Positions 3,007 through 54,540 are shown, numbered from the stretch's first letter. The stretch: DNA of 57,695 nucleotides from an uncultured Oscillospiraceae bacterium (GCA_964560915.1 CAZLMO010000001.1:1-57695); one strand, 5' to 3'. The notes: generated by a model from the letters alone, not told the origin. Numbers and translations: made by a program.

Positions 3007-3648
3007 GTGCCTAACAAATTAATATCAACTGCAACTTTCAACAGAGATCAAGGAAGTAATCCAGTATATCCTAAAAAGGGGGTGGGCTATAATATGTCTG
3101 ACGATAATGTCACTTTTACAAAAAAACAAATAGAGGTAATTCTGCTTCTTATGGGAGACCTGCTTCAAAACGGCGAAGATGATTCGGAAACGGATAGTTT
3201 ACAACAGTCTGCAATCGGCCCATATCTTGATTTGCTTTCTGATGAGGAACTAAAGCACTTTGGTGTCATGGGTATGAAGTGGGGCGTATGGCGGACAAAT
3301 AGACGGAATAATAAGCAACAATACGCTGTAGAAAAACTGGAAGAGCGACAAGGGTATGGTCGTCTCACAGGGGCGAGAGGCAAAAAGAAAGTTCGTGCCC
3401 TAAGTCGACGCAATGCACGATATTCAGCGGACACGACAAAAAGAGTTCGTAAACTTACTCGTTATTTACACCGCGATGCAAATGGTGGATATAAAATACT
3501 AAAACCTTTTTTTAAATTTAAATCTAACCCTGTAAAGGTAGCGGCCGTCAAAGAAGCACTGGCAAAGTTGGAAGTTCACAAAGCTTCATACAAATCCCTT
3601 GGGGACAGACTCAACTCTTTAAAGTTGGACGTTCTTTTAGAAGGATAA
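3007..3648 (+). CDS. head-module protein with HFGxxGMKWG motif (paralog 1)
   Basis: GTG start 7 nt after AGGAGG. Motif KHFGVMGMKWGVWR at nt 3253-3294. Basic C-terminal half. Confidence 0.6.
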   Translation: MPNKLISTATFNRDQGSNPVYPKKGVGYNMSDDNVTFTKKQIEVILLLMGDLLQNGEDDSETDSLQQSAIGPYLDLLSDEELKHFGVMGMKWGVWRTNRRNNKQQYAVEKLEERQGYGRLTGARGKKKVRALSRRNARYSADTTKRVRKLTRYLHRDANGGYKILKPFFKFKSNPVKVAAVKEALAKLEVHKASYKSLGDRLNSLKLDVLLEG

Positions 3649-3696
3649 TATTTCCTGTAAGTTTATATTCAACCCTCATGAAAGGAGGTATCGCCA

Positions 3697-4389
3697 ATGG
3701 CAAATAGAGTTGTTAAACGATCAGAACTTCTACACTATGATTATGATTATGATTATGATATGAATGTCGCTAAATCAGTGCAATATCCTATAATCCAAAC
3801 CGAAGTCGATAAATCTAAGTCTATTTCTGAATTAAGCGACGAAGGATTACAAAAATTAATATATCGACTTCGAAATGAGCGAGAGGCGGAAGATAGTATT
3901 CGTTCTTTGCGTCGATCCGCGGGTGAAAAGGATAGTTATGAAAATCCAGCCAAAATTGATACAATTACACCCGTTAATCAACTGTATCATTTTGGTGTTT
4001 TAGGCATGAAATGGGGGGTTCGTAGATTTCAAAAAAAAGATGGAACACGAACCGCGGCTGGGAAAAAACGGGATCGTGCGGCCGAAGCTGTAAAATCTGA
4101 CGACCATATCAAAAGTCGTGAAAACAAGGAAAAAACACCAGAAGCCCTTTCTAACGAAGAGCTTCGAAAATTAAATGAACGACTCCAACTTGAGGCCACA
4201 TATAAAAGCCTAACTACAGATAAGACTGTGAAAAGTCAGTCATTTGTTAGAAAAGCACTTACAGATGCTGGCGGAAAGGCACTAACAGAATTTAGTCAAG
4301 GACTTATGCTAGGTGGAGCTAAGTTGTTAGTTAGAGAGCTTTCGCCGATGCTTGCAGAAACCGCGTTTAATATGAAAGAAAAGAAATAA
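3697..4389 (+). CDS. head-module protein with HFGxxGMKWG motif (paralog 2)
   Basis: RBS GAAAGGAGG. Motif YHFGVLGMKWGVRRFQKKDGTRTAAG begins at nt 3985. (YD)4 run near the N-terminus. Confidence 0.65.
   Translation: MANRVVKRSELLHYDYDYDYDMNVAKSVQYPIIQTEVDKSKSISELSDEGLQKLIYRLRNEREAEDSIRSLRRSAGEKDSYENPAKIDTITPVNQLYHFGVLGMKWGVRRFQKKDGTRTAAGKKRDRAAEAVKSDDHIKSRENKEKTPEALSNEELRKLNERLQLEATYKSLTTDKTVKSQSFVRKALTDAGGKALTEFSQGLMLGGAKLLVRELSPMLAETAFNMKEKK
3736..3759 (+). repeat. hexanucleotide tandem repeat (TATGAT)x4
   Basis: Four perfect tandem copies encode YDYDYDYD within CDS 3697-4389. Confidence 0.9.
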
Positions 4390-4404
4390 AAGGGAGGGTT
4401 TAGT

Positions 4405-5400
4405 ATGAACGGGTTAGCCCCAACAGAACTTAAGACTTTTAATGGTTTGTCTCAATTTTATGACCCTAGTATTAAATTGGGTGATAAAATACAAGAAGTT
4501 ATTACCGCGCTTAACAATTTGACACCAGCACCGATAGTTGATCCAATAGAGGAAGGCACTCCTATTAATGCCATTGCAGCAAAAGGAACCTTAACGCTTA
4601 CCGGCGTTGTTGTTCATGGTGAAACTGTTGAAATTGGTGAGGATGTTTATCAATTTTCCGCAGACGATCTACAAACAATAACTCGTCCAGAATTTATCCC
4701 AGTCAATATTACACCGCACGTTGTAGAGGCAACGGGGGAACTTACAATGGCCGTCCAACCCGTTGCCGGAGATACGCTTACTCTCGCAACGAAAGTCTTT
4801 ACGTTTGTTCCAGTTGGAACAGACACAGCAGATGGAGAAGTTTCTATCGGTGAGGATCTTGCCGGAGCACAAGCCGCCCTTGTTGCGGCAATTAATGGAA
4901 CAGACGGAGTCAATGATCCTCATACATTAGTTTCTGCTGGTGCGTTTGTTGCTAATGTTTTAACGCTTTCTGCCCTTATCGGAGGTATTGCTGGTAACGA
5001 CATTGACACCACCGAAACATTTACCGCTGAAACAAATGTTTTTGCTGCGGCTAAACTTGCAGGCGGTGGGGATTGCACGGCACCAAACGCCATTCTTGCC
5101 CTTGTTGCAGCTATTACAGCGTTTGACACACAAGGTGTTGGAGCAGTTGATGGCGCAGACGATACCATAGTTTTAACTGCAGATATTGCCGGAGTAGCAG
5201 GAAATGCTATTACGATTGCGACCGATATGATCAATGCTTCATTTGGTCAAGGCGTCACTACGTTAAGTGGCGGGACTAATGGCACGGTTGCTATTGGTAA
5301 AAAGTTTATGGTGGACGCTACTTATTTGTATATTTGTCTAAATGGTAACGCTGCTACCGGAACAAATTGGCGTCGCGTATCTCTTGGAGCCGCCTTTTAA
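4405..5400 (+). CDS. Ala/Gly/Thr-rich virion-module protein with internal repeats
   Basis: RBS AAGGGAGG. Recurring segments GETVEIGEDVY / GDTLTLATKVF and IGGIAGNDIDT / IAGVAGNAITI. Embedded between the HFG-motif paralogs. Function unknown. Confidence 0.55.
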   Translation: MNGLAPTELKTFNGLSQFYDPSIKLGDKIQEVITALNNLTPAPIVDPIEEGTPINAIAAKGTLTLTGVVVHGETVEIGEDVYQFSADDLQTITRPEFIPVNITPHVVEATGELTMAVQPVAGDTLTLATKVFTFVPVGTDTADGEVSIGEDLAGAQAALVAAINGTDGVNDPHTLVSAGAFVANVLTLSALIGGIAGNDIDTTETFTAETNVFAAAKLAGGGDCTAPNAILALVAAITAFDTQGVGAVDGADDTIVLTADIAGVAGNAITIATDMINASFGQGVTTLSGGTNGTVAIGKKFMVDATYLYICLNGNAATGTNWRRVSLGAAF

Positions 5401-5434
5401 CGCTATCCAAAATCTCAAATAAGGAGGGCGTGAT

Positions 5435-5914
5435 ATGAATCAAACGGTCCTTCAACATTTTGGAATTTTAGGGCAGCAATGGGGCATTCGAAGATTTCAA
5501 AATCCCGATGGCTCTTTGACGCCTAGGGGCCAGGCTCGTCTTGATAGGAAGGACAACAAGTGGGCCGCAACAAAGGGCGAAAAAATTAAACAGCGAGTTC
5601 AAAAAAGCGTATCAAAAGATATGAATGAGTTTATTCGTACTCAACTTGAAATATCCTATACTTCCAAAGGCAAACTTTCGTCAAGTACCATTCTTCAATA
5701 CAACAATAAGCTTGCGCAACTTATGAATTCACAAATTTCTGATATTTCAGCACCTTCGGGAAGAGTTTTACGATTTGTTGCTAAGCGGGGACAAATTGGA
5801 GTTCATACTGCGGTTGCGGATGCTGGATATGATATGAAACAACTTAGTCGCGGAGTCTTTAAAACTGGTAAAGTGGCGTATAAGACGGAAAATCTTATGA
5901 AAGGTGGTGATTAA
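5435..5914 (+). CDS. head-module protein with HFGxxGxxWG motif (paralog 3)
   Basis: RBS AAGGAGGG. Motif at the extreme N-terminus: QHFGILGQQWGIRRFQNPDGSLTPRG (nt 5453-5530). Confidence 0.65.
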   Translation: MNQTVLQHFGILGQQWGIRRFQNPDGSLTPRGQARLDRKDNKWAATKGEKIKQRVQKSVSKDMNEFIRTQLEISYTSKGKLSSSTILQYNNKLAQLMNSQISDISAPSGRVLRFVAKRGQIGVHTAVADAGYDMKQLSRGVFKTGKVAYKTENLMKGGD

Positions 5915-5916
5915 TA

Positions 5917-7158
5917 TTGGATTCTGTTGGACAAAGACTTGCTCGTGTGTGGAATGTTTTTCGCGCTCGCGACGAAACAGGTTCTGATTTTTACGTTCAC
6001 CAAACCACCGGCCAGTTTAATTCTTCACAAAACCCCACACGAATTAGATCTTCTTCTCGAAACGAAAAATCAATTCTAACTACAATTACCAATCGAATCG
6101 CGGTAGATGTAGCAAGCTTTAACATTGAGCACGTAAGGGTCGATGAACATGGTCAATATCTTGAGACCATCAACAGTACATTAAACCACTGTTTACGAAT
6201 CGAAGCCAATAAAGACCAAACAGGTCGCGTTTTAATTCAAGATATTGTTATGAGTATGTTTGATGAAGGATCCGTTGCTGTTGTTCCTGTTGAAACCAGC
6301 ATTGACCCAACATTAAGTGGCTCTTATAATATTCTTTCATTGCGAACTGGAAAAATTATAGACTGGTATCCCGACTTTGTTCGAGTAGAAGTTTATAATG
6401 ATCGAACCGGGCAAAAAGAACGAATACTAATGCCAAAAAATATTGTTGCCATTATCGAAAACCCTCTTTATGCGGTTATGAATGAACCGAACTCAACCTT
6501 AAAGCGACTTATTCGGAAACTTAATCTTTTAGATACGGTAGATGAAGCGGCAAGTTCTGGAAAACTTGATTTGATTATTCAACTTCCATATACAATTAAG
6601 TCCGAAGCTCGACAAATTCAAGCAGAAGAACGCATAAAAGCTATGGAAAATCAACTTAAGGGTAGTAAGTATGGCGTTGCTTATGCCGATGCTACCGAAC
6701 GCATAACGCAGTTAAATCGTCCTCTTGAAAATAATCTTCTTACGCAGATTCAATATTTAACGCTTCAATTTTATAACCAACTCGGTTTTACAGAAGATGT
6801 TTTCAATGGTAAAGCAACAGAGCAAAGCTTACGCAGCTACTATGATCGAACAATCGAACCAATCGTGACGACCATTGTTGAGGAGTTACTCCGAAAGTTC
6901 TTGACAAAAACAGCAAGAGCCCAAGGACAACGAATCATGGGCTTTCGTGATGTGTTTAGATTAATACCGGCCGATGAAATTGCGAACATCGCGGATGTAT
7001 TTAGTCGTAACGAAATATTAACCCCCAATGAACTACGTCAAATTGTTGGACGTAAACCTTCAGACGCGCCGCATGCGAATCAACTTCAAAATAGAAACAT
7101 GCCCAATGGTCAACCTTTAAATAATAATACAGGAGGAAACAGTAATGGCAAAGAGTAG
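5917..7158 (+). CDS. putative portal protein
   Basis: TTG start after GGTGGTGA. 413 aa, immediately upstream of and overlapping the protease-capsid gene. Call rests on size and position; family not verified. Confidence 0.5.
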   Translation: MDSVGQRLARVWNVFRARDETGSDFYVHQTTGQFNSSQNPTRIRSSSRNEKSILTTITNRIAVDVASFNIEHVRVDEHGQYLETINSTLNHCLRIEANKDQTGRVLIQDIVMSMFDEGSVAVVPVETSIDPTLSGSYNILSLRTGKIIDWYPDFVRVEVYNDRTGQKERILMPKNIVAIIENPLYAVMNEPNSTLKRLIRKLNLLDTVDEAASSGKLDLIIQLPYTIKSEARQIQAEERIKAMENQLKGSKYGVAYADATERITQLNRPLENNLLTQIQYLTLQFYNQLGFTEDVFNGKATEQSLRSYYDRTIEPIVTTIVEELLRKFLTKTARAQGQRIMGFRDVFRLIPADEIANIADVFSRNEILTPNELRQIVGRKPSDAPHANQLQNRNMPNGQPLNNNTGGNSNGKE

Positions 7159-8995
7159 TAAAAAAAAATATGACTTTAGCGGATACGCCACCAAAGTTGG
7201 GCTGAAATGCTCGGATGGTCGCACCATTCTTCAAGATGCTTTTGAGTCTGTCAATGGAAAAACCGTTCCATTGGTCTATCAGCATATGCATAATGATCCA
7301 AAGAATATCCTCGGACATGCGGTTTTGGAAAATCGTAAAGATGGGGTATATGCATACTGTTCGCTTAATGATACCGAGTCGGGCAAGACAGTGAAAACGC
7401 TTGTTCAGCATGGGGACGTTACGGCGCTTAGTATATATGCCAATTCCTTAGTGGAAAAAAACAAAAATGTTATTCATGGGGTTATTCGTGAAGTTTCTAT
7501 TGTGATTGCTGGCGCTAACCCAGAAGCATATATTGACAATCTTGCTTTTGAACATGGCGATGGTAGTATCACTACCGATGAAACAGAAGCAATCATTTGC
7601 GCGGGAGTACTGGCTCACGATGCGTTTGATGTTGAAGAAGAGGAGGAAGAAAAAGAAGAAGCGATTGTTCATAAGGAATCGGATTCCGAAACAGTTGGGG
7701 ATGTGTTTGAGACCCTCTCCGAAAAACAAAAAAACGTAGTATATGCTATGATCGCAACGGCCCTTGAGAATGTTGAAGAAGACGATGAAGACGAAGAGCC
7801 CGTTAAGCATTCTATTAATGAAAAAGGAGATAACACAATGAAGAAAAATATTTTTGATAAGACCGCCGCTGGTGGTGCTAGAGAACAAACCGCCCTAACT
7901 CGTACCGAACTTCGCGCAATCTTCGAGGACGCTCGGTCTTCTCAGTCGACTCTTAAGAATGCGTTTCTTGCCCATGGCTATGCAACCATTGCCGACGCTT
8001 TAGTTGTTTATGAAGATCGCGAAAATGTTTTAATGCATGCCGGTACCTATGGGATTGAGAACATTGACTATTTGTTCCCAGATGCCCGCACTACCACCAA
8101 CACACCGGATTTTATTAAGCGCAACACCGAGTGGGTAGCGAAAGTCTTTGGCGCCGCCAAACACGTTCCCTTTAGCCGTATTAAGTCTATTGCCGCCGAC
8201 ATCACTGCGGACGAAGCTCGCGCACGAGGCTATATTAAGGGTAACGAGAAAACAAATGAGGTCTTTACGTTATTGAAACGTACTACGGATCCAACCACCG
8301 TATACAAGAAACAAAAACTTGATCGCGATGATGTTATTGACATTACCGATTTCGACGTTGTTATTTGGCTGCGTGCGGAAATGCGTATGATGCTTGAAGA
8401 GGAAATTGCTCGTGCACAAATTGTTGGCGACGGTCGCGACTCTGCTTCGGATGACAAAATCAAAGAAGATAAGATTCGCCCAATTGCTACCGATGCTGCC
8501 TTGTATACTATTCCGATCACCATTATTGAAGCCGCAACCGTTTCTCAGACAATTGATGAGATTATCAAAGGTCGTAAGAGCTACAAAGGTAGCGGCACCC
8601 CAACCTTCTTCACTACTCCGGATATGGCCGGCGATATGCTTCTTCTAAAAGATACTACTGGTCGTCGTCTTTACAATACCGAGTCCGATTTAGCTGCTGC
8701 TCTTCGCGCTCGTGAGATCGTTGAAGTTCCTGTTATGGAAAACCAAGTTGTTGTAATCACTCCGGCCGAAGTTGGTGTTGCGGGTAGTCAAAAACGCTTA
8801 ATTGGAGTTTCTGTTAACATGAGTGATTACTCTCTCGGCGCCGATAAGGGTGGCAATATTGCAATGTTTGATGACTTTGACATCGACTTCAATCAATACA
8901 AATATTTGATCGAAACTCGTTGTTCTGGCGCATTAACCATGCCGCACTCTGCCATTGCGTATTGGAAACTCGAAACGATTCCTGCGCTTACTTAA
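7145..8995 (+). CDS. prohead protease - acidic linker - major capsid protein fusion (HK97-like)
   Basis: RBS AGGAGGAAA. The N-terminal ~150 aa resemble HK97-family prohead proteases (SGYATKVG...VPLVYQHMH...REVSIV). Two acidic linkers follow (EEEEEEKEE, EEDDEDEE). The C-terminal ~370 aa have an HK97-fold capsid-like pattern (ARARGYIKG...KKQKLDRDDVIDITDFDVV...IVGDGR). Confidence 0.7.
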   Translation: MAKSSKKKYDFSGYATKVGLKCSDGRTILQDAFESVNGKTVPLVYQHMHNDPKNILGHAVLENRKDGVYAYCSLNDTESGKTVKTLVQHGDVTALSIYANSLVEKNKNVIHGVIREVSIVIAGANPEAYIDNLAFEHGDGSITTDETEAIICAGVLAHDAFDVEEEEEEKEEAIVHKESDSETVGDVFETLSEKQKNVVYAMIATALENVEEDDEDEEPVKHSINEKGDNTMKKNIFDKTAAGGAREQTALTRTELRAIFEDARSSQSTLKNAFLAHGYATIADALVVYEDRENVLMHAGTYGIENIDYLFPDARTTTNTPDFIKRNTEWVAKVFGAAKHVPFSRIKSIAADITADEARARGYIKGNEKTNEVFTLLKRTTDPTTVYKKQKLDRDDVIDITDFDVVIWLRAEMRMMLEEEIARAQIVGDGRDSASDDKIKEDKIRPIATDAALYTIPITIIEAATVSQTIDEIIKGRKSYKGSGTPTFFTTPDMAGDMLLLKDTTGRRLYNTESDLAAALRAREIVEVPVMENQVVVITPAEVGVAGSQKRLIGVSVNMSDYSLGADKGGNIAMFDDFDIDFNQYKYLIETRCSGALTMPHSAIAYWKLETIPALT

Positions 8996-10471: not shown

Positions 10472-10888
10472 ATGCTTAAAAAATCTGTCAACTACACAAA
10501 CTATGATGATCAGCCGGCGGTAATGACTTGTTATTTTAATCTAAATAAGTTTGAATGGTTAGAACTTGAGGCGTATACCAAAGGTGGCCTTATTGAAAAC
10601 CTTCGGAATGCGTTGGAAACAAATAACCTCAAAAAGGTTATCGATATTCTGAAAAAGATCATTCTTACGTCTTATGGCGAGAAAAATCCAGAAACCGGAA
10701 TTTTTGAAAAGAGCGATGAAATTGCCATTCGGTTTAGCAGAACAGAGGCTTTTAGTGAACTCTTTTTAGAATTAGCATATGATGAAGAGAAATCCCAAGA
10801 GTTCTTCTTAGCGCTTATTCCTGCCGAAATGCGAGACAAAGCATTAGCTGAGTTAGCCAAAACGAAACCTGTAAGACTCCAGGAATAG
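10472..10888 (+). CDS. putative tail assembly chaperone
   Basis: The second ATG has proper spacing to GAAGGAGA; the track start at 10463 abuts the RBS. Acidic 138-aa protein between the major tail and tape measure genes. Confidence 0.4.
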   Translation: MLKKSVNYTNYDDQPAVMTCYFNLNKFEWLELEAYTKGGLIENLRNALETNNLKKVIDILKKIILTSYGEKNPETGIFEKSDEIAIRFSRTEAFSELFLELAYDEEKSQEFFLALIPAEMRDKALAELAKTKPVRLQE

Positions 10889-10900
10889 GAGAGATTTTAA

Positions 10901-11446
10901 ATGCTCGAGATACGTGTTCCTGCGAGTGAAGTATATCAAGCGTGGAATAATACATTTATTAACGTCCAATCTTGCGTGCTAACACTCGAGCATTCTTTAA
11001 TCTCGGTAGCAAAATGGGAAGCTAAATGGCATATTCCATACTTGAACGCGAGAAAAAAAACCACTGCGCAAGATTTGGATTATATTCGCTGCATGGTTAT
11101 TGGACCTGTGAAGGACGATGCTATATTTGCAGCACTTTCTTCAGAAAATATCGCGGATATTCGAAAATATATTGATGACACAATGACCGCGACAACCTTC
11201 TCAGAAAGTTTAAATACCAAAAAACACTCCAAAGAAGTAGTCACAGCAGAGATTCTTTATCATCGAATGTTTACAAATAATATTCCTATGGAGTGTCAAA
11301 AATGGCATTTAAATCGTTTACTTACATTAATACGGGTGTGCGATACAAAGAATTCACCGCCTTCAAAAATGAATAAGAAACAAACAGCGTCGCATTATGC
11401 AGAACAAAATGCGCTTCGGCGAGCGAAGTATAATACCAAAGGATAA
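10901..11446 (+). CDS. hypothetical tail-module protein (possible second chaperone)
   Basis: RBS TAGGAGAG. 181 aa with a basic C-terminus. Lies upstream of the tape measure gene. Confidence 0.3.
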   Translation: MLEIRVPASEVYQAWNNTFINVQSCVLTLEHSLISVAKWEAKWHIPYLNARKKTTAQDLDYIRCMVIGPVKDDAIFAALSSENIADIRKYIDDTMTATTFSESLNTKKHSKEVVTAEILYHRMFTNNIPMECQKWHLNRLLTLIRVCDTKNSPPSKMNKKQTASHYAEQNALRRAKYNTKG

Positions 11447-11486
11447 TCTTAGTCTATAAATTTTAAAATAAGGAGATACGATAGGC

Positions 11487-11858
11487 ATGATTAAAATGAC
11501 TCAACGTGGGTCCTTTAGGAATGCCGAACGGTTCTTCGATAATAGCAAAGATCTCAATCGTAGGCTTAGAACCGCGTTCGAGAGATATGGCTCTCAGGGA
11601 GTCGAAGCGCTTCGATCGGCAACCCCAACAAATAGTGGGCTAACTGCCAATAGCTGGTCCTATACCATTGAGGACTGGGGAATTGGTTTTAACAATTCGA
11701 ACATCCAAAACGGCTACTCTGTTGCACTATTAATTCAATATGGACACGCCACACGCAATGGCGGATATGTCGAAGGTATTGACTTTATTAATCCTGCCCT
11801 TCGTCCTATATTTGAAAAAATTGCAACAGAGTGCTGGAAGGAGGTTCGTAGTCTATGA
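11487..11858 (+). CDS. HK97 gp10-like tail/neck component
   Basis: VALLIQYGHATRNGGYVEGIDFINPAL matches the gp10-family signature (eyGh...g..v.g..f). Position directly before the tape measure gene is unusual. Confidence 0.5.
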   Translation: MIKMTQRGSFRNAERFFDNSKDLNRRLRTAFERYGSQGVEALRSATPTNSGLTANSWSYTIEDWGIGFNNSNIQNGYSVALLIQYGHATRNGGYVEGIDFINPALRPIFEKIATECWKEVRSL

Positions 11859-14800
11859 GCGACAAAATTGATCAAAGAATAGTGGAAATGTCCTTTGAAA
11901 ATCAAAAGTTTGAGAAGGGTATTTCGCAATCTAAAAATAGTTTGAAAGAATTTGCCAACGCTTTGCAAAATTCAGACTTAAATAAAGGTTTTAATGGTCT
12001 TGAGCAATCCGTTGGTGCAGTGTCGAACTCCTTTTCTATATTAGAGCAAATAGGCATAGGTGCTTTACGACGACTTGGCGAAACAGCAATGAACACTGGA
12101 ATGAATATGATTAAAAGTTTATCTGTTGATCAGCTTTCCGCCGGGTGGACTAAATATGCTCAAAAAACAGCATCTGTTCAAACGATAATGAACGCAACCG
12201 GGAAGAGTGTATCTCAGGTTAACGATTATTTAGATCGTTTAATGTGGTACTCAGACGAAACGAGTTACGGATTTACCGATATGACACAAGCGCTTGGACA
12301 AATGACCTCGGCTGGTGGTAATATCGATAAATTAATCCCAATGATTACGGGTGTCGCTACTGCGACCGCATATGCAGGTAAAAGCGCCACCGAATTTAGC
12401 CGAGTAATGTATAATTTAAACCAATCATATGGTAGGGGCTACCTTGAGTTTAGGGATTGGTCAAGTGTAGAACAAGCGGGTGTAGGCGGACAAGCTCTTA
12501 AACAAGTATTTATCGATACTGGCAAAGCTCTTGGTAAACTCAATGCCGAAGGACGTACTGCTCAAGGCACTCTTGTTAATATTGGCACCTTTGGTACTAC
12601 TCTGCAAGATAAATGGGCCAATACTGCTGTTATGGAAGCCGCCTTTAGTAAATTCTCTGAACTTTCTGAAGCCGCATATAAACTTGTTAAAGATGGAACA
12701 TATGAAACCGCGGGGGAGGCAATGGAATTTCTTGCGGGAAAATATTCCGAAGTTGCCGAGAAAGGTTTTAATTCTGCTCAAAAAGCCAAAACATTTAGCG
12801 AAGCTATCATTGCAACAATGGATGCGGTTAGTAGTGGCTGGATGCGCACATACGAAATCATATTTGGATACTTTGATGAAGCAACGGTCAATTTTACAAA
12901 TCTTTCAAAGGTTCTGTGGCAGGTATTTGCTAGTGGAGCAAAAGAACGAAATGACATGCTTGCTTGGTTAAAAGAATTTGGAGGAGTTGCTAATATTTTT
13001 GGGGGCCTTAAAGACATTCTAATCGGCCTTCTTAATGTTGTACTTCCAATTTCTAAAGCGATTGATCAAATCTTTCCTCCTCGAACGAAAGAGCAGTGGC
13101 TAGCTATAACCAAATCGTTTAAAAGTTTTACTGAAACTTTGATCATTGGAGAAGAAACTGGAGATAAAATTCGACGTACTTTTGCTGGTCTATTTTCTGT
13201 TATTGATCTTGGGATACAAATAGTAAAATTCTTAGGCTCTGCCGCTTTTGATGTTATTAAAATTTTTATTCCCTTAGGAGATGGCGTCCTTGGAGTTACT
13301 GCGTCCATCGGTGACTTCTTGTTCAACGTCACAAGAGCCATTAAATCAACGGGGCTTTTTCAATATGCATTACTTGCGATTAAAGTTGGAGCAGTCGTTC
13401 TTCGAGAAAATATTATACGACTAGCTGATTCTGTGTCTGGGTTTATTACTGGATTATGGAACGCTGAAGATCCTTTTGAATATATTCGTAAGACAGGTAT
13501 TCAAATCTTTACCGATCTTCTTACAAGAATCAAAATGGTAACGAATTGGCTCTCTGTTAATTTAACAAAGGCGGTTCAAAATTTTACCGGTCTTTTTGAT
13601 TGGAAAGCTATTGGGGAAAATATTAATGTTTTGCCCACAATAGTTGCTATTTTAAAAGATGCAGTAGAATTTATTGGTGGCAAAGCCGTTAAAGGTTTTA
13701 AAGACTTTAGTGATGCGGTTGACAATATTGATTTTAGCAAAATTGCGACATTTGTCGTTGGTGGCGTGTTATTGATATTTTTTAAACAACTTTCTGACCT
13801 AACCGGGGCAATGACGAGCTTTACTCTTTCTGTTACCGGCGCAATCAATGGGTTTACTAAAAAATTTGTCGGACCTAAGACAACAACGTTGGTTCGTGAT
13901 ATGGCTTTTGCTTTTGGTGTACTTTCGGCAAGTCTGTGGGTTTTATCTCGTATTCCGGCCGAAGATCTTAATCGTAGTTTTGTTACAATGGCCAAAGGTG
14001 TTGCAGTGTTTGTTACGGCATATGGCTTACTTCAAGGAATTCAAGTTGCTGCTTCTAATCTTACAAAAAACAAAGATATGGCAACATCGGCGTTCGGACT
14101 TACCGGAATTGCGGCATCCTTATTAATTATGTCTTTTGCCGTTAAAAACATTGGTCAAATTGACGAAGCCCGTATTTGGGATGCGACAATGGCCCTAGGT
14201 GCACTCCTTGGGTTTATGACTACATATCAGATATTATCTGCATATATTAGTAAAATTCCAAACCAACAAAAAGTTACAATGAACCTTACTGGCATGTCGA
14301 TGTCCATTTTAACACTTGTCGGCGCCTTAGTTCTTCTTGATAAAGTTAGCTTTAACGACCTTCAAATCAGTCTTGCTAAAATGGCATCGATTTTGGCCGT
14401 TATTGGTAGTTTTCAACTTCTTCTCGGGGCTACAGCTCGACTTGGAGGAGGTAAGTCGGCTTCAACGAGCATTCTTGGAGTGGCTGGCGGAATTGTAGCA
14501 ATGATTGCGGTTTTAAAGCTTCTTGCTTTTATGGATCCTCAGATAATTACACAAAGTATTGCTAATTTAGGACTTATGGTTCTCCTTCTTGCAGGAATAG
14601 AAATTATAATGGGGGCTGCTGGCCGTTTGGGCGGGGGTAAGAAATTTAATACTGACATCTTTGGAGCCCAACTTGGCTTACTTTCCTTGACGGCATTGAT
14701 TGTAGTTCTAGGTGCAATAAATCAAGAAACTATTGATCGTGGAATTATCAGCCTTGCTAAAATGGCAGGTATTCTTGGTGGAATTCAAATAATGACAGCA

Positions 14801-22449: not shown

Positions 22450-22884
22450 ATGGCCGAAACCCAGTTAATTCAAGTAAGACGCGGAAACAAAGCAGATCTA
22501 CCGATACTTGCAGATGGGGAAATCGGTTTCTGTATGGATACGCAGGAAATATTTATCGGTAATGGCGGAGTCAATGTCGCCACAACTTCGGTCTATGTAC
22601 ATCCAGAAACTCATCCTGCTTCTATGATTACTGAATCGGAAGATCGTGTATTTCTTACCTCAGCAGAGAGAACAAAACTTCTTGCATATAAAGACGACTA
22701 TGTGCATATACAAATGATCGCAGCCCAAACGTGGATAGTCTCACATGGTCTACATAAATACCCAAGTGTAACTATTATGGATTCTAGTGGGGCGCATATT
22801 ACGGCCGATGTCGAATATATCGATATAGATGTCCTGCATATTCATTTCACCGCAGAGATTGGTGGAAGGGCATATTTAAGTTAG
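22450..22884 (+). CDS. tail fibre protein (hyaluronidase/Mtd-type N-terminal domain)
   Basis: IQVRRGNKADLPILADGEIGFCMDTQEIFIGNGG matches the conserved N-terminal fibre motif (RRG...L..GE.GF..DT....IG.G). Confidence 0.5.
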   Translation: MAETQLIQVRRGNKADLPILADGEIGFCMDTQEIFIGNGGVNVATTSVYVHPETHPASMITESEDRVFLTSAERTKLLAYKDDYVHIQMIAAQTWIVSHGLHKYPSVTIMDSSGAHITADVEYIDIDVLHIHFTAEIGGRAYLS

Positions 22885-22893
22885 GAGGATTTT

Positions 22894-25128
22894 ATGAAGC
22901 ACGGATCTAATTATGATTTTATAAGGAACGAGATTCAGAATTTCGTTATACATAAATTGCCCGCACCGCCAGCTAACCCAATTGCGGGCATGGTTTATTT
23001 TAATACGTCCGCCGGCGTATTAAAATTTTATGGGTGCACCGTTGGTGGAGCAACTCCGACGTGGGTTGATCTAGGACAAGTATTAACCGGCGACAATATT
23101 ATTGCGCTACTTAACGCCTCCGCGTCTCTTATTGATGATGATAATCTAAGTGCGGCGGTCAATGATGCGCTTACTAAAAGACACGCACATAGTAATTCTA
23201 CAGCTCTAGATGCAACGCAAGAAGCATTTACTACTATACTTAAAAACAAATTAGATGGAATTGCCACTAACGCCAATAAATATGTTCACCCAGCAAACCA
23301 TCCGCCATCTATTATTACGCAAGACGCAAGTAATCGGTTTGTAACGGATGCCGAGAAGAGTACTTGGAATGCTAAACAAAATGCTCTTGGTTTTACTCCC
23401 GTTAAGAATGGCAGTAATACCCCAGAAATACAAGCAGGTCTAGAATCAGCAAGGCCTGCTGCTACGGGCAGTGGAATTTTATATTTTGCCATAGACACCA
23501 AAAAAATATGGAAAGACACGGCGACGGGCGTATGGACTCAGATGGGGGGACAAGATTTACCAATAGCGTCGAGTTCTGTTCTTGGTGGCATTAAAGTTGG
23601 AGCTAATCTTACCATTGGAGGAGACGGGACCCTTAACGCTAATGATAATCCCGCCAGTTTTGTTATCAAACACCAACGATTTACTATATCTGGAGGTCAA
23701 ACGGCGTTCACTCTTACTGGGGGTACATATAAACCCAACTCTCACACTATATTCTGGTTTCTAGATGGAATCAAACAAGATAGCGATGCATTGACGGAAT
23801 CATCTGCTACGACATTTAGCGTTCCTGCCGGGTTACCAAATGGAGCAGAAATACTTATTGAGTACTATGAGACTATTAATGCAAATCCATATCCTACTCA
23901 TGCGACCGAGCATATAAGTACCGGGGTTGACGCTATTCCTAATGCAACGGCAACTCAAAATGGTTTATTAAGTGTTGCCGATAAACTTCGATTAGATGGA
24001 ATGGCTGATAACGCCAATAAATATGTTCACCCAGCAAACCATCCGCCATCTATTATTACGCAAGACGCAAGTAATCGGTTTGTAACGGACGCCGAGAAGA
24101 GTACTTGGAATGGTAAAGAACCATCAATTACAGCAGATTTGGTAACAAAGTTTTGGAGTGGCACTAAAACATGGAGAACCTTGGCGACAGACGTACGCGC
24201 CGTGGTTTTAACCGGGTTGTCCACCGCCACAAATGCAGTAATCGCAGCAACTGACAGCATATTAGTAGCACTTGGCAAATTACAGGCTCAGATAACTGGG
24301 CATACCGGAAATACATCAAACCCACATGGCGTTACAAAGACTCAATTAACTTTAGGTAATGTGGATAATACGTCAGATGCAAACAAACCCATTTCTACGG
24401 CGCAACAATCCGCTCTAAACCTAAAAGCGCCTCTCGCTTCCCCCGCATTAACAGGAACCCCAACGGCGCCCACTCCGCCGGTAGGAGATAATGATACTTC
24501 CATAGCCACAACCGCTTTTGTTGCAGCAGAAATTGCCAGTAAATTAGCATCCAATGACGCAATGATATTTAAAGGTACTGTTGGCACTGGCGGCACCCAC
24601 ACAATTGCTGCATTCAATGCCCTCGTCATATATAATGCTGGCTGGGCGTATAAAGTGATCGAAGCCGGAACTATTAAGGGTAAGGTCTGTGAGGTTGGGG
24701 ATCTATTAGTGGCCACTGTTGACAGAGCAAGTGCCGGGGTCGATGCCGATTGGTTAGTATTACAAACTAATGCAGACGGATTGGTTACTGGTCCAGCACT
24801 TTCCACTGATGGAAATTTAGTATTATGGAACGGCGCAACAGGTAAAGTAGTTAAGAATAGTGCATATTCACCAGCAAGTTTCGCACCGGCAGTACATAAT
24901 CATGATACGGTATATCCTAAAAAGTATACAACCACCATTGGTGGTGCCACAAGTATCCTTGTCACACATAACCTTAATACTCGCGCACTAGTCTGGAGTA
25001 TTTATGACACAGCAACGCCGTGGGAGGCTATTATTACAGACGTGGCATTAACATCTCTTAACACTGTTACTGTCTCGTTTGGATTCGCACCGGCCGCTGG
25101 GGCATATACAATTGTCCTTATCGGATAG
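22894..25128 (+). CDS. tail fibre protein 1 (744 aa)
   Basis: Duplicated NANKYVHPANHPPSIITQDASNRFVTDAEKSTWN module. Fibre-typical motifs LGNVDNTSDANKP and LTGTPTAPTPPVGDNDTSIATTAFV. Confidence 0.8.
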   Translation: MKHGSNYDFIRNEIQNFVIHKLPAPPANPIAGMVYFNTSAGVLKFYGCTVGGATPTWVDLGQVLTGDNIIALLNASASLIDDDNLSAAVNDALTKRHAHSNSTALDATQEAFTTILKNKLDGIATNANKYVHPANHPPSIITQDASNRFVTDAEKSTWNAKQNALGFTPVKNGSNTPEIQAGLESARPAATGSGILYFAIDTKKIWKDTATGVWTQMGGQDLPIASSSVLGGIKVGANLTIGGDGTLNANDNPASFVIKHQRFTISGGQTAFTLTGGTYKPNSHTIFWFLDGIKQDSDALTESSATTFSVPAGLPNGAEILIEYYETINANPYPTHATEHISTGVDAIPNATATQNGLLSVADKLRLDGMADNANKYVHPANHPPSIITQDASNRFVTDAEKSTWNGKEPSITADLVTKFWSGTKTWRTLATDVRAVVLTGLSTATNAVIAATDSILVALGKLQAQITGHTGNTSNPHGVTKTQLTLGNVDNTSDANKPISTAQQSALNLKAPLASPALTGTPTAPTPPVGDNDTSIATTAFVAAEIASKLASNDAMIFKGTVGTGGTHTIAAFNALVIYNAGWAYKVIEAGTIKGKVCEVGDLLVATVDRASAGVDADWLVLQTNADGLVTGPALSTDGNLVLWNGATGKVVKNSAYSPASFAPAVHNHDTVYPKKYTTTIGGATSILVTHNLNTRALVWSIYDTATPWEAIITDVALTSLNTVTVSFGFAPAAGAYTIVLIG
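23269..23371 (+). repeat. 103-nt direct repeat, copy 1 (inside tail fibre 1)
   Basis: Identical to 24010-24112 except one T/C difference (GAT vs GAC). Similarity extends about 18 nt further upstream with 4 mismatches. Confidence 0.9.
24010..24112 (+). repeat. 103-nt direct repeat, copy 2 (inside tail fibre 1)
   Basis: See 23269-23371. Confidence 0.9.
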
Positions 25129-25137
25129 GAGCAACAT

Positions 25138-26685
25138 ATGAAGATATTTGGAGTAGAACTTAAATTTAAAGCTAGTGATATTTGGCATGCTGGAAATTTT
25201 GATCCTAATACAAAAGTTGACAAAAGTGTTAGCGAAATCCCATTCGTTATTGGTACACAGACCACTACAACGGCCTCTTGGACGGGTGTTGCAGATTCTA
25301 TAGATGGTTTATATAATGGGCTTACTATTAGATATTGGCTACCAAGAACGAGCGCATCGAATGTAACTTTAAACTTAACGTTAAAGGGCGGGGCAACGAC
25401 TGGTCCTATAAATTGTTATTACGGCGGCGTGTCCAGACTAACCACGCATTACCCAGCTGGTAGCTTTATTATGTTAACCTATATTGTTAATGGTCTTATT
25501 AATGGAACGGCGTACACTGGTTGGTGGGCCAAAGCCAATTATGTAGACGGCACCGAATCATATGCCATTAGATGGAATTCGACGCACAAGGTTGGGGCGG
25601 CAGTCTATTCCTATAAACTTTGTATGTTTGGAACCGACGGATTGTTATATCCACTAACATTAGAGACCGGAACTGGAACTACTAAAACAGTATCGGTTGT
25701 AGAATTTGCCATTGATTCGCCAATTCTATATTATGGAACCACTACCACAATAGCCGCTAACGGGACGAGTAGCTCCTATTGGTATAAAGGCGTTTCTATG
25801 GGAAGGTTGCATTACACGGCAAACATCGCTAGCGGATGGACTGCTTACAAGCCAATTTATTTGAAAGGAATAATAACCGCAGCGGGAAATTTTAAATTAG
25901 ACAACACCACTTTTACTAGTTGGTTAACACAAACCTTACCGACAAGTGACGATGGTTTTGTTTATATGTTAGTTGGGCATATGTATGATACAACGGTAAC
26001 GATGCGGTTATTAGAATCTAATCTACTACTTCAATACAAAAATGGAAAAATAAGACCCTATGTCTCAGTTTCTGCATTGGATGTTGGTTTAGGGAATGTG
26101 GACAACACAGCTGATGCAAATAAGGCTGTCCTAAGCGCTACAAAGCTAGCCACACCAAGAAAAATTAATGGGGTAAACTTCGATGGCACCGCAGCGATTA
26201 CTATAGCAGACAGCACAAAAGAACCCTCAATTACAGGTAGTACCGTTTCGACTTTTTGGAGTGGTCTTAAAACATTCAGAGACTTAGCAACAGATGTACG
26301 CGCTATAGCATTAACAGGACTGTCTGTCGCTACTAATTCTGCTATCGTCGCAACGGACACCATATTAGTGGCTCTTGGTAAATTGCAAGCACAAATAACA
26401 GGTCATACTGGTAGCACATCTAATCCTCATAGTGTTACGGCTACACAAGTTGGATTAGGGAATGTTACGAATGAATCTAAAGCGACAATGTTTACTAATG
26501 CTGCGTTGACAGGCACGCCAACCGCCCCGACACCAGCAACGGGAGATAATGATACTTCTATTGCCACTACTGCTTTTGTTAAAGCACAGGGATATATTAC
26601 ATCGTCATCAGCTGCTAAAATTACGGTAAGTGCTACCGCTCCAGCTTCTCCTATTGTTGGAGAATTCTGGTATCAAGTTTTATAA
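25138..26685 (+). CDS. tail fibre protein 2 (515 aa)
   Basis: Shares with fibre 1 the module EPSIT...FWSG.KT.R.LATDVRA..LTGLS.ATN..I.ATD.ILVALGKLQAQITGHTG.TSNPH...LGNV.N and LTGTPTAPTP..GDNDTSIATTAFV. Confidence 0.75.
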   Translation: MKIFGVELKFKASDIWHAGNFDPNTKVDKSVSEIPFVIGTQTTTTASWTGVADSIDGLYNGLTIRYWLPRTSASNVTLNLTLKGGATTGPINCYYGGVSRLTTHYPAGSFIMLTYIVNGLINGTAYTGWWAKANYVDGTESYAIRWNSTHKVGAAVYSYKLCMFGTDGLLYPLTLETGTGTTKTVSVVEFAIDSPILYYGTTTTIAANGTSSSYWYKGVSMGRLHYTANIASGWTAYKPIYLKGIITAAGNFKLDNTTFTSWLTQTLPTSDDGFVYMLVGHMYDTTVTMRLLESNLLLQYKNGKIRPYVSVSALDVGLGNVDNTADANKAVLSATKLATPRKINGVNFDGTAAITIADSTKEPSITGSTVSTFWSGLKTFRDLATDVRAIALTGLSVATNSAIVATDTILVALGKLQAQITGHTGSTSNPHSVTATQVGLGNVTNESKATMFTNAALTGTPTAPTPATGDNDTSIATTAFVKAQGYITSSSAAKITVSATAPASPIVGEFWYQVL

Positions 26686-26698
26686 AGGAGAAATCAAA

Positions 26699-27088
26699 AT
26701 GGCTAATAAAAATATTCAAATGACCCAGCGTAACGCTGCTAATACTGGCTGGGATAATTTATATCCTATTAGTATTATCGGCAACATTACAGGATTGCAG
26801 ACGGCCTTGGACAATCTTAAGCCGTTACGATTTACTAATACCGCGGTTACAACAGGCGCTTGGTCAGCAAATGCTACGTATGCAGGATATGGCTTTAGAG
26901 CTTCTATTACGTTAAGTGGCTGTTTAGCCACAATGATTCCCGAAGTTATCTTTGCACCTGCTGACGCAGATAGCGGTAATTTCTGTAGCGTAGCTGATAG
27001 TTACGCAGGTGGAGTTTACATTTATGCTAAAACTGCTCCTACTGCTACAGTAACGATTCCTACAATCACATTAGAAAAGGCGGTGTGA
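26699..27088 (+). CDS. hypothetical tail-fibre-module protein
   Basis: ATG at 26699 lies 8 nt after AAAGGAGA; the track start at 26630 lies inside the previous gene. 129 aa. Confidence 0.5.
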   Translation: MANKNIQMTQRNAANTGWDNLYPISIIGNITGLQTALDNLKPLRFTNTAVTTGAWSANATYAGYGFRASITLSGCLATMIPEVIFAPADADSGNFCSVADSYAGGVYIYAKTAPTATVTIPTITLEKAV

Positions 27089-30317: not shown

Positions 30318-30354
30318 CCCCTTGCAGAAAATACAAGGGGTCTTTTTTTTTTTT
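30318..30354 (+). terminator. rho-independent terminator ending the late/lysis operon
   Basis: Stem CCCCTTG / CAAGGGG followed by a T-rich tail (TCT12). Confidence 0.85.
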
Positions 30355-39402: not shown

Positions 39403-39546
39403 ATGATTACACTACTGATTATGGTGGTTCTTTTGAGTGTAATATGCGGATTGTTGTGTAAATTTGTATCGGCCCTTGTGGGTGTGATATTTATAATGGC
39501 AGCGATGGCATTTACACTTCGAATGGCCAAAGAGATCTTAAGGTGA
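39403..39546 (+). CDS. small membrane protein (47 aa)
   Basis: Not in the ORF track. RBS AAAGGAGGAA. Sequence MITLLIMVVLLSVICGLLCKFVSALVGVIFIMAAMAFTLRMAKEILR. Confidence 0.55.
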   Translation: MITLLIMVVLLSVICGLLCKFVSALVGVIFIMAAMAFTLRMAKEILR

Positions 39547-39567
39547 GAGCTACGGCTCTCCTTTTTT
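39545..39567 (+). terminator. intrinsic terminator
   Basis: Stem GAGAGC / GCTCTC with a TACG loop, then T6. Confidence 0.75.
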
Positions 39568-39573
39568 CGCCTC

Positions 39574-39600
39574 GCAGAATCTTCTTACCCTATAATGGAA
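39574..39600 (+). promoter_or_regulatory. phage promoter-like motif copy 12
   Basis: GCAGAATCTTCTTACCC-TATAAT-GGAA. Confidence 0.55.
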
Positions 39601-39817: not shown

Positions 39818-39840
39818 GAGAGCTACGGCTCTCCTTTTTT
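39818..39840 (+). terminator. intrinsic terminator
   Basis: GAGAGC-TACG-GCTCTC followed by T6. Confidence 0.75.
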
Positions 39841-39846
39841 CGCCTC

Positions 39847-39873
39847 GCAGAATCTTCTTACCCTATAATGGAA
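39847..39873 (+). promoter_or_regulatory. phage promoter-like motif copy 13
   Basis: GCAGAATCTTCTTACCC-TATAAT-GGAA. Confidence 0.55.
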
Positions 39874-52380: not shown

Positions 52381-53583
52381 TTGAACATACAACTTACTGA
52401 ATATCAGGTTGAGGCCGTTGAGAAAATGCATAATGGTTGTATTCTGCGAGGCGGTACGGGTTCTGGGAAAACTCTTACCTCTTTAGTTCATGTATTTGAA
52501 AAAATTTTGAAAGGCAGTTCCCCTTTATATCCGGGGCACACATATAAGAAAGCCGCTGTTAACCTTTCCATATATGTTATTACTACTCCAAAAAAACGGG
52601 ACAGTCTTGATTGGACCAGAGAAGCGGCTCTTGTTCCTATAGGTCTTACGGTTGTTGATTCGTGGAATAATATTAAAAAATATGAGCATCTTAAAAACGC
52701 CGTATTTATTTTTGATGAGTCAAAAGTTATTGGGTATGGAGCATGGACGCAGTCGTTTCTTAAAATTACGAGACATAATGCGTGGATGCTTTTATCTGCA
52801 ACGCCAGGAGACACTTGGTTAGAATATATGCCAGTATTCATTGCCAATGGATTTTATAAAAACAAAACCGAATTTGAGCGAGAGCATGTGATGTGGAGTC
52901 GCTTCTCTAAATATCCAAAGGTTGAACGATATCTTGGTATATCTCGTTTAATTCGTCAACGAGATCTTATTACGGTGGATATGGGAGACCAACGAGCAAC
53001 AACGCAACACCATAAGGACGTGCTTTGTGATTTTAACGCAATTCATTATGAAATACTAGCAAAGGATAGATGGAACCTCTTTGAAAATAAACCAATTCGA
53101 GACATATCGCAGCTATGCTTTGCGCTTCGTAAGGTTGTAAATTCTGACGAATCAAGACTTGCCGCCCTCTCTACCATTTATGCTAGACATAAGAAAGTAA
53201 TCGTTTTCTATAACTTTAACTATGAATTAGAACTACTTCGCAGTTGGTGCGATTCTAATAAAATTGTGTATTCTGAATGGAATGGCCGTAATCATGACGA
53301 CTTACCCACAAGTCCACTTTGGGTATATCTTTGCCAATACACGGCCGCAAAAGAAGCATGGAATTGTATTGAAACTGATTGTATTGTATTTTATTCGCAA
53401 ACCTACTCATACAAGGCCCTTGTGCAGTCAGCGGGAAGAATTGATAGGATGAACACCACCTTCTTACATTTATACTATTATCATCTAATATCCTCTGCAC
53501 CAATTGAATTAGGCATACAAAAAGCTTTATATCATAAAGAAAACTTTAATGAAGGGCGTTGGCTTATGGCCGAAAGCTCTTAA
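52381..53583 (+). CDS. SF2 (SNF2/DEAD-like) helicase
   Basis: TTG start after AAAGGAGGTGAG. Walker A GGTGSGKT, Walker B-like IFDES, SAT-like motif LSATPG, and a C-terminal QSAGRIDR motif VI. Confidence 0.7.
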   Translation: MNIQLTEYQVEAVEKMHNGCILRGGTGSGKTLTSLVHVFEKILKGSSPLYPGHTYKKAAVNLSIYVITTPKKRDSLDWTREAALVPIGLTVVDSWNNIKKYEHLKNAVFIFDESKVIGYGAWTQSFLKITRHNAWMLLSATPGDTWLEYMPVFIANGFYKNKTEFEREHVMWSRFSKYPKVERYLGISRLIRQRDLITVDMGDQRATTQHHKDVLCDFNAIHYEILAKDRWNLFENKPIRDISQLCFALRKVVNSDESRLAALSTIYARHKKVIVFYNFNYELELLRSWCDSNKIVYSEWNGRNHDDLPTSPLWVYLCQYTAAKEAWNCIETDCIVFYSQTYSYKALVQSAGRIDRMNTTFLHLYYYHLISSAPIELGIQKALYHKENFNEGRWLMAESS

Positions 53584-53585
53584 TC

Positions 53586-53612
53586 GCAACAAAAACATAG
53601 CCTATAATGAGA
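53586..53612 (+). promoter_or_regulatory. phage promoter-like motif copy 18
   Basis: GCAACAAAAACATAGCC-TATAAT-GAGA. Confidence 0.6.
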
Positions 53613-53676
53613 GAGTAAGGTGTCGCTAAACCAGCGCATCTTCTTTTCTTATATTTTTTGAGAAAGGAGCGTGGCT

Positions 53677-53979
53677 ATGGCTAAAAAAGAGTCTGAATTT
53701 AAGGGTAAACTCTATAAAGAAATCCGGGAACGATTCCCAGGAGCTGAAGTTCTTCCAAATGATCCTAACTATCTTCAAGGGATTCCCGACGCAACGGTCT
53801 TTTTTCCAAACGGGAGATATGTTATGCTTGAGAGCAAAAAAGCTGCGACCTCAAAAAAACAACCAAACCAAGAATACTATGTATACGAATCTCCTTTAAG
53901 TAAAAACGCAATGTTTGCATGCCCCGACAATCGCAAAGAAGTTCTTACTGAACTAGAAAGGAGATATCATTTGCAGTGA
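53677..53979 (+). CDS. PD-(D/E)xK nuclease (VRR-NUC / resolvase-like)
   Basis: ATG lies 7-8 nt after AAAGGAG. GIPDATVFF...VMLESKK fits the D...ExK motif. Confidence 0.45.
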   Translation: MAKKESEFKGKLYKEIRERFPGAEVLPNDPNYLQGIPDATVFFPNGRYVMLESKKAATSKKQPNQEYYVYESPLSKNAMFACPDNRKEVLTELERRYHLQ

Positions 53980-54524: not shown

Positions 54525-54540
54525 GGGTGTAAAACAACCA

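Follow-up and report, generated by a model that had tools for sequence, protein, structure and literature searches.

A short DUF7211 peptide as a candidate capsid-loading tag on phage head-module proteins and an RNA polymerase

We analysed a 57,695-nucleotide (nt) stretch of DNA from an uncultured Oscillospiraceae bacterium (GCA_964560915.1, CAZLMO010000001.1:1–57695), referred to here as the window, which is an apparently complete phage genome of ~57.7 kb (40% GC). Three genes of its head module encode proteins with a short peptide of DUF7211 (PF23847), a 25-residue Pfam family (gathering cut-off, 27 bits) of unknown function in Pfam, which no paper found in the literature searched mentions; a further gene encodes a single-chain RNA polymerase (RNAP) that opens with a related peptide. 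The reading that we favour, and to which we give an even chance, is that DUF7211 is a portable capsid-loading tag, that the RNAP carries a diverged copy of it and that both kinds of protein are virion cargo. A preliminary description of the window had proposed a capsid-targeting or portal-docking signal and a packaged RNAP; that proposal gains partial support here from the likeness of the two peptide profiles, the co-occurrence of motif and polymerase, the portability of the motif, its predicted disorder, the depositors' labels in Lactococcus phage 1706 and a class of conserved promoters; on this reading the tag would itself be the cause of packaging.

Related peptides in head-module proteins and the RNA polymerase

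All four peptides lay where the preliminary description had placed them: KHFGVMGMKWGVWR (nt 3253–3294), YHFGVLGMKWGVRRFQKKDGTRTAAG (from nt 3985) and QHFGILGQQWGIRRFQNPDGSLTPRG (nt 5453–5530) in open reading frames (ORFs) 1–3, and LKHFGTPRHSGRYPWGSG at the opening of the RNAP (nt 54541–57411, + strand). ORF1 (nt 3007–3648, +; 213 aa, GTG start), ORF2 (nt 3697–4389, +; 230 aa) and ORF3 (nt 5435–5914, +; 159 aa) share the form H-F-G-[VI]-x-G-x-x-W-G-[VI]-[RW]-R, with cores at nt 3256–3294, 3988–4026 and 5456–5494. When the complete window was translated in all six frames, H[FY]G..G..WG occurred at these three sites only, and the gapped pattern H[FYW]G.{2,12}WG added a single site, the RNAP N-terminus. 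The three genes were said to be interleaved with the terminase and portal genes, and they do lie between those for the large terminase (TerL; nt 1234–2979, +; Pfam TerL_nuclease, 3.7e-30) and the portal protein (nt 5917–7158, +; Pfam Phage_portal, 3.1e-16; phrog_12, 1.1e-37), but the interval holds four ORFs, the remaining one (nt 4405–5400) being free of the motif.

ORF1 and ORF2 pass the Pfam cut-off (34.5 and 33.9 bits, respectively) and are members of DUF7211. ORF3, which has QQ where the others have MK, falls under it (12 bits, E = 0.14); its sequence nonetheless points to a divergent member, and to a paralogue of ORF2, given 41.9 bits with a local 22-column hidden Markov model (HMM), a match to phrog_32444 (E = 2.7e-11) and a DNA-level repeat between ORF2 and ORF3 (3988–4043 and 5456–5511; 56 nt, 77% identical). 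The ORF2 core carries an extension, RRFQKKDGTRTAAGKKR, and the ORF3 core the same extension, RRFQNPDGSLTPRG. ORF2 matched phrog_32444 and phrog_7021 (E about 2e-23) and had 2,038 homologues, in which H13 and H98 are invariant. The first 21 residues of ORF2 (ELLHYDYDYDYD, nt 3697–3760) contain LLHY at residues 11–14, conserved in the family as L-x-H-Y; this half-motif resembles the first half of the motif, that is, the half common to the RNAP, and ORF2 may carry one and a half tags.

The motif had been called N-terminal, which is true of ORF3 (residue 8) and the RNAP (residue 6) but, with longest-ORF starts, not of ORF1 (~residue 83; core at residues 84–96) or ORF2 (residue 98); the true start of ORF1 may lie further downstream than its GTG. 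The basic character ascribed to the remainder of the small proteins was evident in ORF1–3, with isoelectric points (pI) of 9.9–10.8 downstream of the motif versus 4.2–5.2 upstream (10.8 and 4.2 in ORF1). The AlphaFold2 model of ORF2 is an extended helical protein (predicted template-modelling score (pTM), 0.26) with long helices at residues 48–75 and 153–215, whereas the motif residues 91–108 have predicted local distance difference test (pLDDT) values below 50.

The RNAP (956 aa), whose ORF begins with MAYLKHFGTPRHSGRYPWGSGKDP, matched phrog_4291 ('RNA-dependent RNA polymerase') with E = 0 over residues 217–953. Its catalytic DxDGD loop (SGADFDGDT, residues 551–559; GADFDGDT within it) is invariant in 5 distant and 41 closer homologues, and helix–turn–helix (HTH) domains near both ends (HTH_38, HTH_23 and Sigma70_r4_2) exceeded their Pfam cut-offs. 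The match to the Pfam RNA-dependent RNA polymerase (RdRP) family PF05183 stayed below the cut-off (13.1 versus 23.8 bits). An AlphaFold2 model built from a 41-sequence alignment (mean pLDDT, 75; pTM, 0.58) had RNAP β′, Rpb1 or poxvirus RNAP chains as its top 19 Foldseek matches in the PDB, all of them weak (E from 9e-3 to 1, TM < 0.1), and a PDB sequence search with the RNAP profile returned the HTH parts only. On the basis of the DxDGD loop and the family match, we place the enzyme in the YonO/QDE-1-like class of two-barrel, single-chain polymerases, with DNA-dependent synthesis predicted. It is a member of a family described as a signature gene ('HTH domain protein / putative RNA polymerase') of an actinophage–Firmicutes phage 'supercluster', with an HHpred probability of 95.7% against PF05183 (bioRxiv 10.1101/842583).

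The N-terminal peptide of the RNAP, KHFGTPRHSGRYPWGSG (nt 54553–54603, +), is near-invariant among 120 homologues of 51–100% identity and is retained in 44 diverse lineages whose identity falls to ~42%, with the consensus acidic-x-[YFL]-L-x-H-Y-G-[TIV]-[PLK]-R-[HRK]-S-G-R-Y-P-W-G-S-G. Automated selection of conserved peptides returned R[HK]SGRYP[WY] and the catalytic GADFDGD as the two most conserved peptides of the enzyme. The peptide had been described as the H-F-G...W-G core of the small proteins with a three-residue insertion; the core was recovered, but the insertion comprises four residues (HFG+9+WG versus HFG+5+WG). Residues 1–26 of the RNAP model have pLDDT values of 36–39 and no secondary structure, which, together with the ORF2 model, argues that the motif peptides are not a buried part of either protein. 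A peptide that is invariant and yet predicted to be unstructured looks like a linear docking motif that would bind a partner in trans.

In these genomes the DUF7211 copies have the form acidic-x-[YFL]-L-x-H-[YFH]-G-[VI]-[KL]-G-M-K-W-G-V-R-[RK], often identical to the RNAP peptide in the first nine positions, and the upstream context can be identical too (for example, DDYLAHYGILRKSGRYPWGSG in the RNAP of L067 and DDYLAHYGVKGMKWGVRH in L095). Alignment of 39 DUF7211 segments to 44 RNAP N-termini with hhalign gave a probability of 94.8% (P = 5e-8) over the first 13 columns. The observed score was 31.6, compared with a mean of 8.5 (standard deviation (s.d.), 2.9; maximum, 21.4) for 300 column shuffles of the RNAP profile, a distance of ~8 s.d., and as judged from these profiles the likeness exceeds chance. 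We class the RNAP peptide as DUF7211-like, a diverged relative rather than a Pfam member, because the Pfam cut-off is not reached and the link appears at the profile–profile level only.

Position, modular architecture and distribution of DUF7211

DUF7211 keeps to one part of the phage genome. All 19 loci with TerL, portal and protease–capsid genes carried 1–6 copies each, and all 41 of these copies lay upstream of TerL (directly so in all but one) or between TerL and portal; copy numbers ranged from 1 to 8 per genome. Seven consecutive TerL–portal genes of ReqiPepy6 each open with M-x(3-10)-D-[DS]-F-L-A-H-Y-G-V-K-G-M-K-W-G, and the Gordonia phage Pherobrine has four such tag-first genes. A single copy was seen away from TerL and portal and outside the head module: at locus L088 (position 1934, +), ~8 kb upstream of the RNAP, the DUF7211-like sequence EHSGVKGMKWGVRN (23 bits) stands at residue 180 of a 321-aa ORF.

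We surveyed domain architecture in the 150 best-scoring representatives of 41,690 DUF7211 clusters. In 141 of the 150 proteins the first motif began no more than 30 residues from the start; these representatives carry 2–5 motifs, spaced by 109–644 aa (median, 229). Given that this spacing approximates the size of a stand-alone DUF7211 protein and that the first motif is N-terminal, each module appears to start with a motif. Most modules had no known domain. The others included GNAT acetyltransferases (6 of 150, sometimes bracketed by two motifs), the papain-fold glutamine-deamidase toxin PF15644 (5 of 150), sigma70 r3/r4 domains and CW_7 (2 of 150 each). A homologue search with the motif profile returned N-terminal fragments of 34–74 aa only, which are uninformative on domain architecture. 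LigT-like 2H phosphoesterases were also fused to DUF7211 (at ~residue 340–350) in genes just upstream of TerL, in L102 (ReqiPepy6, 10681–12276), L098 (Fazel, 4933–6606) and L099 (Perkunas, 4936–6489). The anti-CBASS (cyclic oligonucleotide-based antiphage signalling system) enzyme Acb1 belongs to the 2H phosphoesterase class and, by analogy, the LigT-like DUF7211 protein may be an injected anti-defence enzyme. Judging from these architectures, DUF7211 is a short, mostly N-terminal peptide common to otherwise unrelated putative cargo, as a tag would be.

In 50,697 phage genome records searched with tblastn, the RNAP was found in 250 (almost always at the right genome end among the records listed) and a 36-aa DUF7211 consensus in 247 (E ≤ 10). 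Counts per host genus were identical for the two queries (Arthrobacter, 95; Gordonia, 55; Streptomyces, 54; Lactococcus, 13; Curtobacterium, 7; Microbacterium, 4; Faecalibacterium, 2). Among 60 records taken at even intervals from the motif ranking, full-length genomes were always hit among the head genes and not at the RNAP. Co-occurrence of the motif with two-barrel RNAPs, to which the preliminary description had pointed as a check, was thus found in ~250 phage genomes and nowhere else among cultured phages; YonO and its phage SPβ were absent from both sets of results. The lineage comprises actinophage clusters together with relatives of Lactococcus phages 1706 and P118 and of Faecalibacterium phage FP_oengus, and the motif is nearly alike in phages of Actinobacteria and Firmicutes. 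Metagenomes added at least 7,986 RNAP clusters at 90% identity and 41,690 DUF7211 protein clusters at 50% identity. The window itself has no close cultured relative, given that a search for near-identical DNA with its head module returned no match among cultured phages.

Virion annotation, promoters and genome layout

Indirect support for a virion location of the tagged proteins comes from the depositors' annotation of Lactococcus phage 1706 (EU081845), in which product labels are 'unknown', 'putative X' or 'structural protein', most of the other ORFs bearing labels of the first two kinds. The orf7 product, encoded just upstream of TerL and carrying two DUF7211 motifs (Pfam, 41.8 bits), is labelled 'structural protein'. 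So is that of orf75, at the far right end, which aligns along its full length with the window RNAP (33% identity, E = 1e-148) and bears LQHYGTKRHSGRYPWGSG; RefSeq renamed it 'RNA-dependent RNA polymerase'. As the orf75 sequence suggests no virion role, we infer that its label stems from the identification of virion proteins. The words 'packaged' and 'injected' do not occur in the 2021 preprint describing the lineage (bioRxiv 10.1101/842583).

The window also contains a 30-nt promoter-like motif, T[CT]GCA-N7-AAC-N6-8-TATAATG[AG][AG]A, in 18 copies that are all on the + strand. Seventeen are located between nt 30351 and 47045 (30.3–47.0 kb), ahead of small early/middle ORFs and replication genes, and the best (nt 53583–53612; 35.9 bits) is 958 nt upstream of the RNAP start, before an operon of nuclease, Cas4-like and RNAP genes (53671–57650); the 30-kb structural module has none. 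The same architecture recurs in relatives: seven copies, perfectly in register (TCGCA[AC]G-N4-[AC]C-N6-TATAGTGAGA), stand at the equivalent genome position of Streptomyces phage Scap1 (61% GC), and phage 1706 has four, at 24025, 24380, 25336 and 29559. A position weight matrix (PWM) built from the window and Scap1 gave 90 sense-strand matches versus 1 antisense match over 98 loci and the window (~1.1 Mb). Its matches included a copy ~0.94–1.07 kb ahead of the RNAP tag in 35 of 64 non-redundant loci, whose GC contents spanned 31–61%. In locus L017, copies lie at 22652–26867 and 38770.

The upstream element of the promoter ends 12–13 nt before TATAAT, a spacing that is not sigma-70-like. Considering this spacing and the conservation across host phyla, the phage RNAP, with its sigma-r4-like HTH domain, is probably the cognate reader of the motif. 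An RNAP gene under its own class of promoter would require a first polymerase molecule, and a virion-borne copy would solve this. A perfect 56-nt direct repeat (39545–39600 and 39818–39873), consisting of a terminator-like hairpin (GAGAGCTACGGCTCTC and a T run) followed by the promoter motif, is a duplicated terminator–promoter cassette in the early region. The first 9 nt of the window match the last 9 nt (CTTCTACAT), which suggests a circularly closed assembly or cohesive ends. Read-through from the promoter of the RNAP operon, passing over the joined genome ends, was considered as the source of late transcription and dropped, given a terminator-like hairpin at nt 28–40 and a sigma70-like promoter (11/12) at 57622–57651, near the junction.

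The remaining layout is that of a phage with all of its larger gene-like ORFs on the + strand. Downstream of the portal gene lies a fusion of a prohead protease (S78) and the major capsid protein (nt 7145–8995, +; Pfam Peptidase_S78 and Phage_capsid; phrog_3270, E = 4.8e-216), the two parts being joined by an acidic linker with two Glu/Asp runs that form a direct repeat (nt 7629–7656 and 7770–7797). No separate scaffold gene was found in the window. Immediately upstream of TerL is a phage connector protein (nt 860–1231, +; PF24829, E = 2e-29), a homologue of 1706 orf6 and ReqiPepy6 gp012, both of which are labelled 'structural protein'. The motif-free ORF among the three DUF7211 genes (nt 4405–5400, +; 331 aa) is acidic (pI 4.05), with abundant Ala, Gly and Thr and loose 'I.G.AGN.I' repeats; it matched neither Pfam nor PHROG and may be a head decoration or fibre protein. 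Two tail-fibre-like genes (22894–25128 and 25138–26685) contain long, diverged direct repeats within 23250–26586 (24151–24362 versus 26254–26465, 72% identical; 23250–23379 versus 23991–24120, 95%), suggesting duplicated receptor-binding modules.

Readings of the motif and their implications

As a tag, DUF7211 would be a docking peptide that recruits otherwise unrelated cargo into the assembling procapsid of one large lineage. Cargo in the window would be three small, basic, largely helical proteins and a single-chain RNAP with a diverged N-terminal tag, all of which would be ejected and enter the next host together with the DNA. The delivered RNAP would then start transcription at ~18 conserved promoters, serving the early genes and its own operon, with early transcripts expected to start 6–8 nt downstream of TATAATGAGA; the promoters would accordingly be those of the phage enzyme rather than of the host. 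Either the portal or the protease–capsid protein could serve as its receptor, and the latter is also a candidate tag-processing enzyme. A broader form of this reading, which we hold more tentatively and regard as possible rather than probable, is that DUF7211 is an address label in a general cargo-loading system of a cross-phylum lineage (more than 40,000 protein clusters), in which all labelled modules would be loaded and injected, including toxins, acetyltransferases, phosphoesterases, sigma-like factors and an RNAP that starts infection from conserved promoters, its own among them.

Several observations weigh against a packaged RNAP bearing a loading tag. The RNAP N-terminus has no Pfam DUF7211 match, a plain HMM gives at most 8–9 bits on any RNAP N-terminus, and the hhalign match is confined to its 13 columns. 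Co-occurrence is partly confounded by shared descent, both features being hallmarks of one lineage, and so does not prove a functional link. The virion location is drawn from the annotation of phage 1706, that is, of a relative and not of the window phage, and the 'structural protein' labels of orf7 and orf75 were taken from the GenBank record alone; orf62 and orf71 of the same phage, outside the structural module, bear that label with no motif found, so contaminants may be among the labelled proteins, or a protein may be packaged without the tag. The RNAP-upstream promoter copy was not above threshold in 29 of the 64 loci, the promoters contain a sigma-A-like TATAAT that host RNAP could read, and the terminal hairpin and sigma70-like site leave late transcription unexplained. 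YonO of the Bacillus prophage SPβ, the characterised relative, is said to be a late-gene polymerase and, to our knowledge, is not known to be packaged.

The likeliest alternative, which we nevertheless consider doubtful and which is compatible with a targeting role, is that the motif chiefly serves the prohead protease as a site for recognition or cleavage at the boundaries of polyprotein modules. Cutting would free the individual mature proteins within the head, and any targeting would be a by-product of binding to the capsid-fused protease. Proteins with 2–5 motifs at spacings of 109–644 aa do look like polyproteins, a GNAT domain can be flanked by two motifs, the protease, as part of the capsid fusion, sits inside the prohead, and the capsid-targeting sequence of phage T4 is also removed by a prohead protease. 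However, the protease–capsid fusion must itself be cleaved, yet no DUF7211-like sequence was found in it at E ≤ 1000; a motif at residues 1–3, as in many of the proteins, leaves nothing to remove; and loss of stop codons, fusing tandem paralogues, explains multi-motif proteins equally well.

A role in transcription is unlikely. Here, DUF7211 proteins, as regulators or specificity factors for example, would bind the RNAP or the partner of its N-terminus, and the RNAP peptide would be a cis-acting pseudo-ligand, which suits the strict co-occurrence of DUF7211 and RNAP among cultured phages, the sigma70 r3/r4 domains of some DUF7211 proteins and an RNAP tag conserved as strongly as the catalytic loop. 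All 41 copies examined stand beside TerL or portal, however, and not beside regulatory genes; the deamidase toxin, GNAT, 2H phosphoesterase and CW_7 cargo is not obviously connected with an RNAP; genomes differ in copy number (from 1 to 8); and orf7 of phage 1706 is labelled structural.

We find it improbable that the motif acts after ejection, by binding a universally conserved host structure or by self-assembling into a trans-envelope conduit, with packaging left to other parts of the proteins. Near-identity of the motif between actinobacterial and Firmicutes phages is compatible with a very conserved target or with self-association, and the basic, helical proteins resemble known ejection proteins; a conserved phage partner (portal or protease–capsid protein) explains the conservation equally well, however, and a Pfam-level protein scan found no transmembrane or known envelope-binding feature in ORF1–3. 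It is very improbable that the RNAP N-terminus is unrelated to DUF7211, alike by convergence or chance and simply a piece of the enzyme (such as an arm that contacts DNA or RNA), as the lack of a link by Pfam or plain HMM, the 13 aligned columns and the differing second halves (RxSGRYPWGSG versus G-M-K-W-G-V-R-R) might suggest, given the shuffle control, the acidic-hydrophobic-L-x-H-Y-G-[VIT] context held over dozens of lineages, the same position preference in both classes and a modelled peptide left unpacked against the enzyme.

The proposed loading tag has precedents among known kinds of system. In phage T4, the capsid-targeting sequence on the internal proteins IPI–III and Alt is amphipathic, is cleaved after Glu by gp21 and directs its carriers to the scaffolding core. 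DUF7211 is like it in being a short N-terminal peptide on unrelated proteins, host-modifying enzymes included, with several genes for basic, putatively injected cargo, and unlike it in showing no sequence similarity, in occurring in siphoviruses of Gram-positive hosts for which no separate scaffold was found and in recurring inside long proteins. MuF polymorphic toxins of temperate phages pair a head module beside the portal with variable, presumably injected enzyme or toxin domains. The likeness is that of a portal-adjacent, head-associated module fused to variable enzyme or toxin domains, whereas DUF7211 is a ~20-aa peptide N-terminal to each module and not a folded domain; no MuF domain (PF04233) was detected in the eight head-module and RNAP proteins scanned or among the domains of the 150 DUF7211 proteins.

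Known virion-packaged RNAPs include those of N4 (vRNAP), crAss-like phages (gp66) and phiKZ/AR9, the crAss-like gp66 and phiKZ-type enzymes being two-barrel polymerases. What would be shared is a particle-carried RNAP for early genes at phage-specific promoters, proposed here from genes and annotation. The window enzyme differs in being a compact 956-aa single chain with built-in HTH and sigma-r4-like domains, encoded in a 58-kb siphovirus-type genome, and we know of no shared loading tag described for the known packaged RNAPs. With YonO it shares the class, the single chain, the DxDGD loop and a relationship to RdRP/QDE-1. T4 capsid-targeting sequences, MuF toxins and virion RNAPs are thus known kinds; what appears to be undescribed is the tag, together with its modular grammar, its scale and the connection to a YonO-type polymerase.

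If DUF7211 is a loading tag, a large domain of unknown function would gain a function, and tagged GNATs, 2H phosphoesterases, deamidase toxins and thousands of modules lacking a known domain would become candidate injected effectors of anti-defence or host takeover. The packaged polymerases known to date are those of N4-like, crAss-like and jumbo phages, and virion-delivered YonO-type RNAPs would extend them to ordinary 40–60-kb siphoviruses of Gram-positive bacteria. The conserved promoter and the HTH-bearing polymerase would together form a compact, host-independent transcription system, and a 20-residue tag that loads arbitrary proteins into the capsid would be useful for engineered phages that deliver enzymes.

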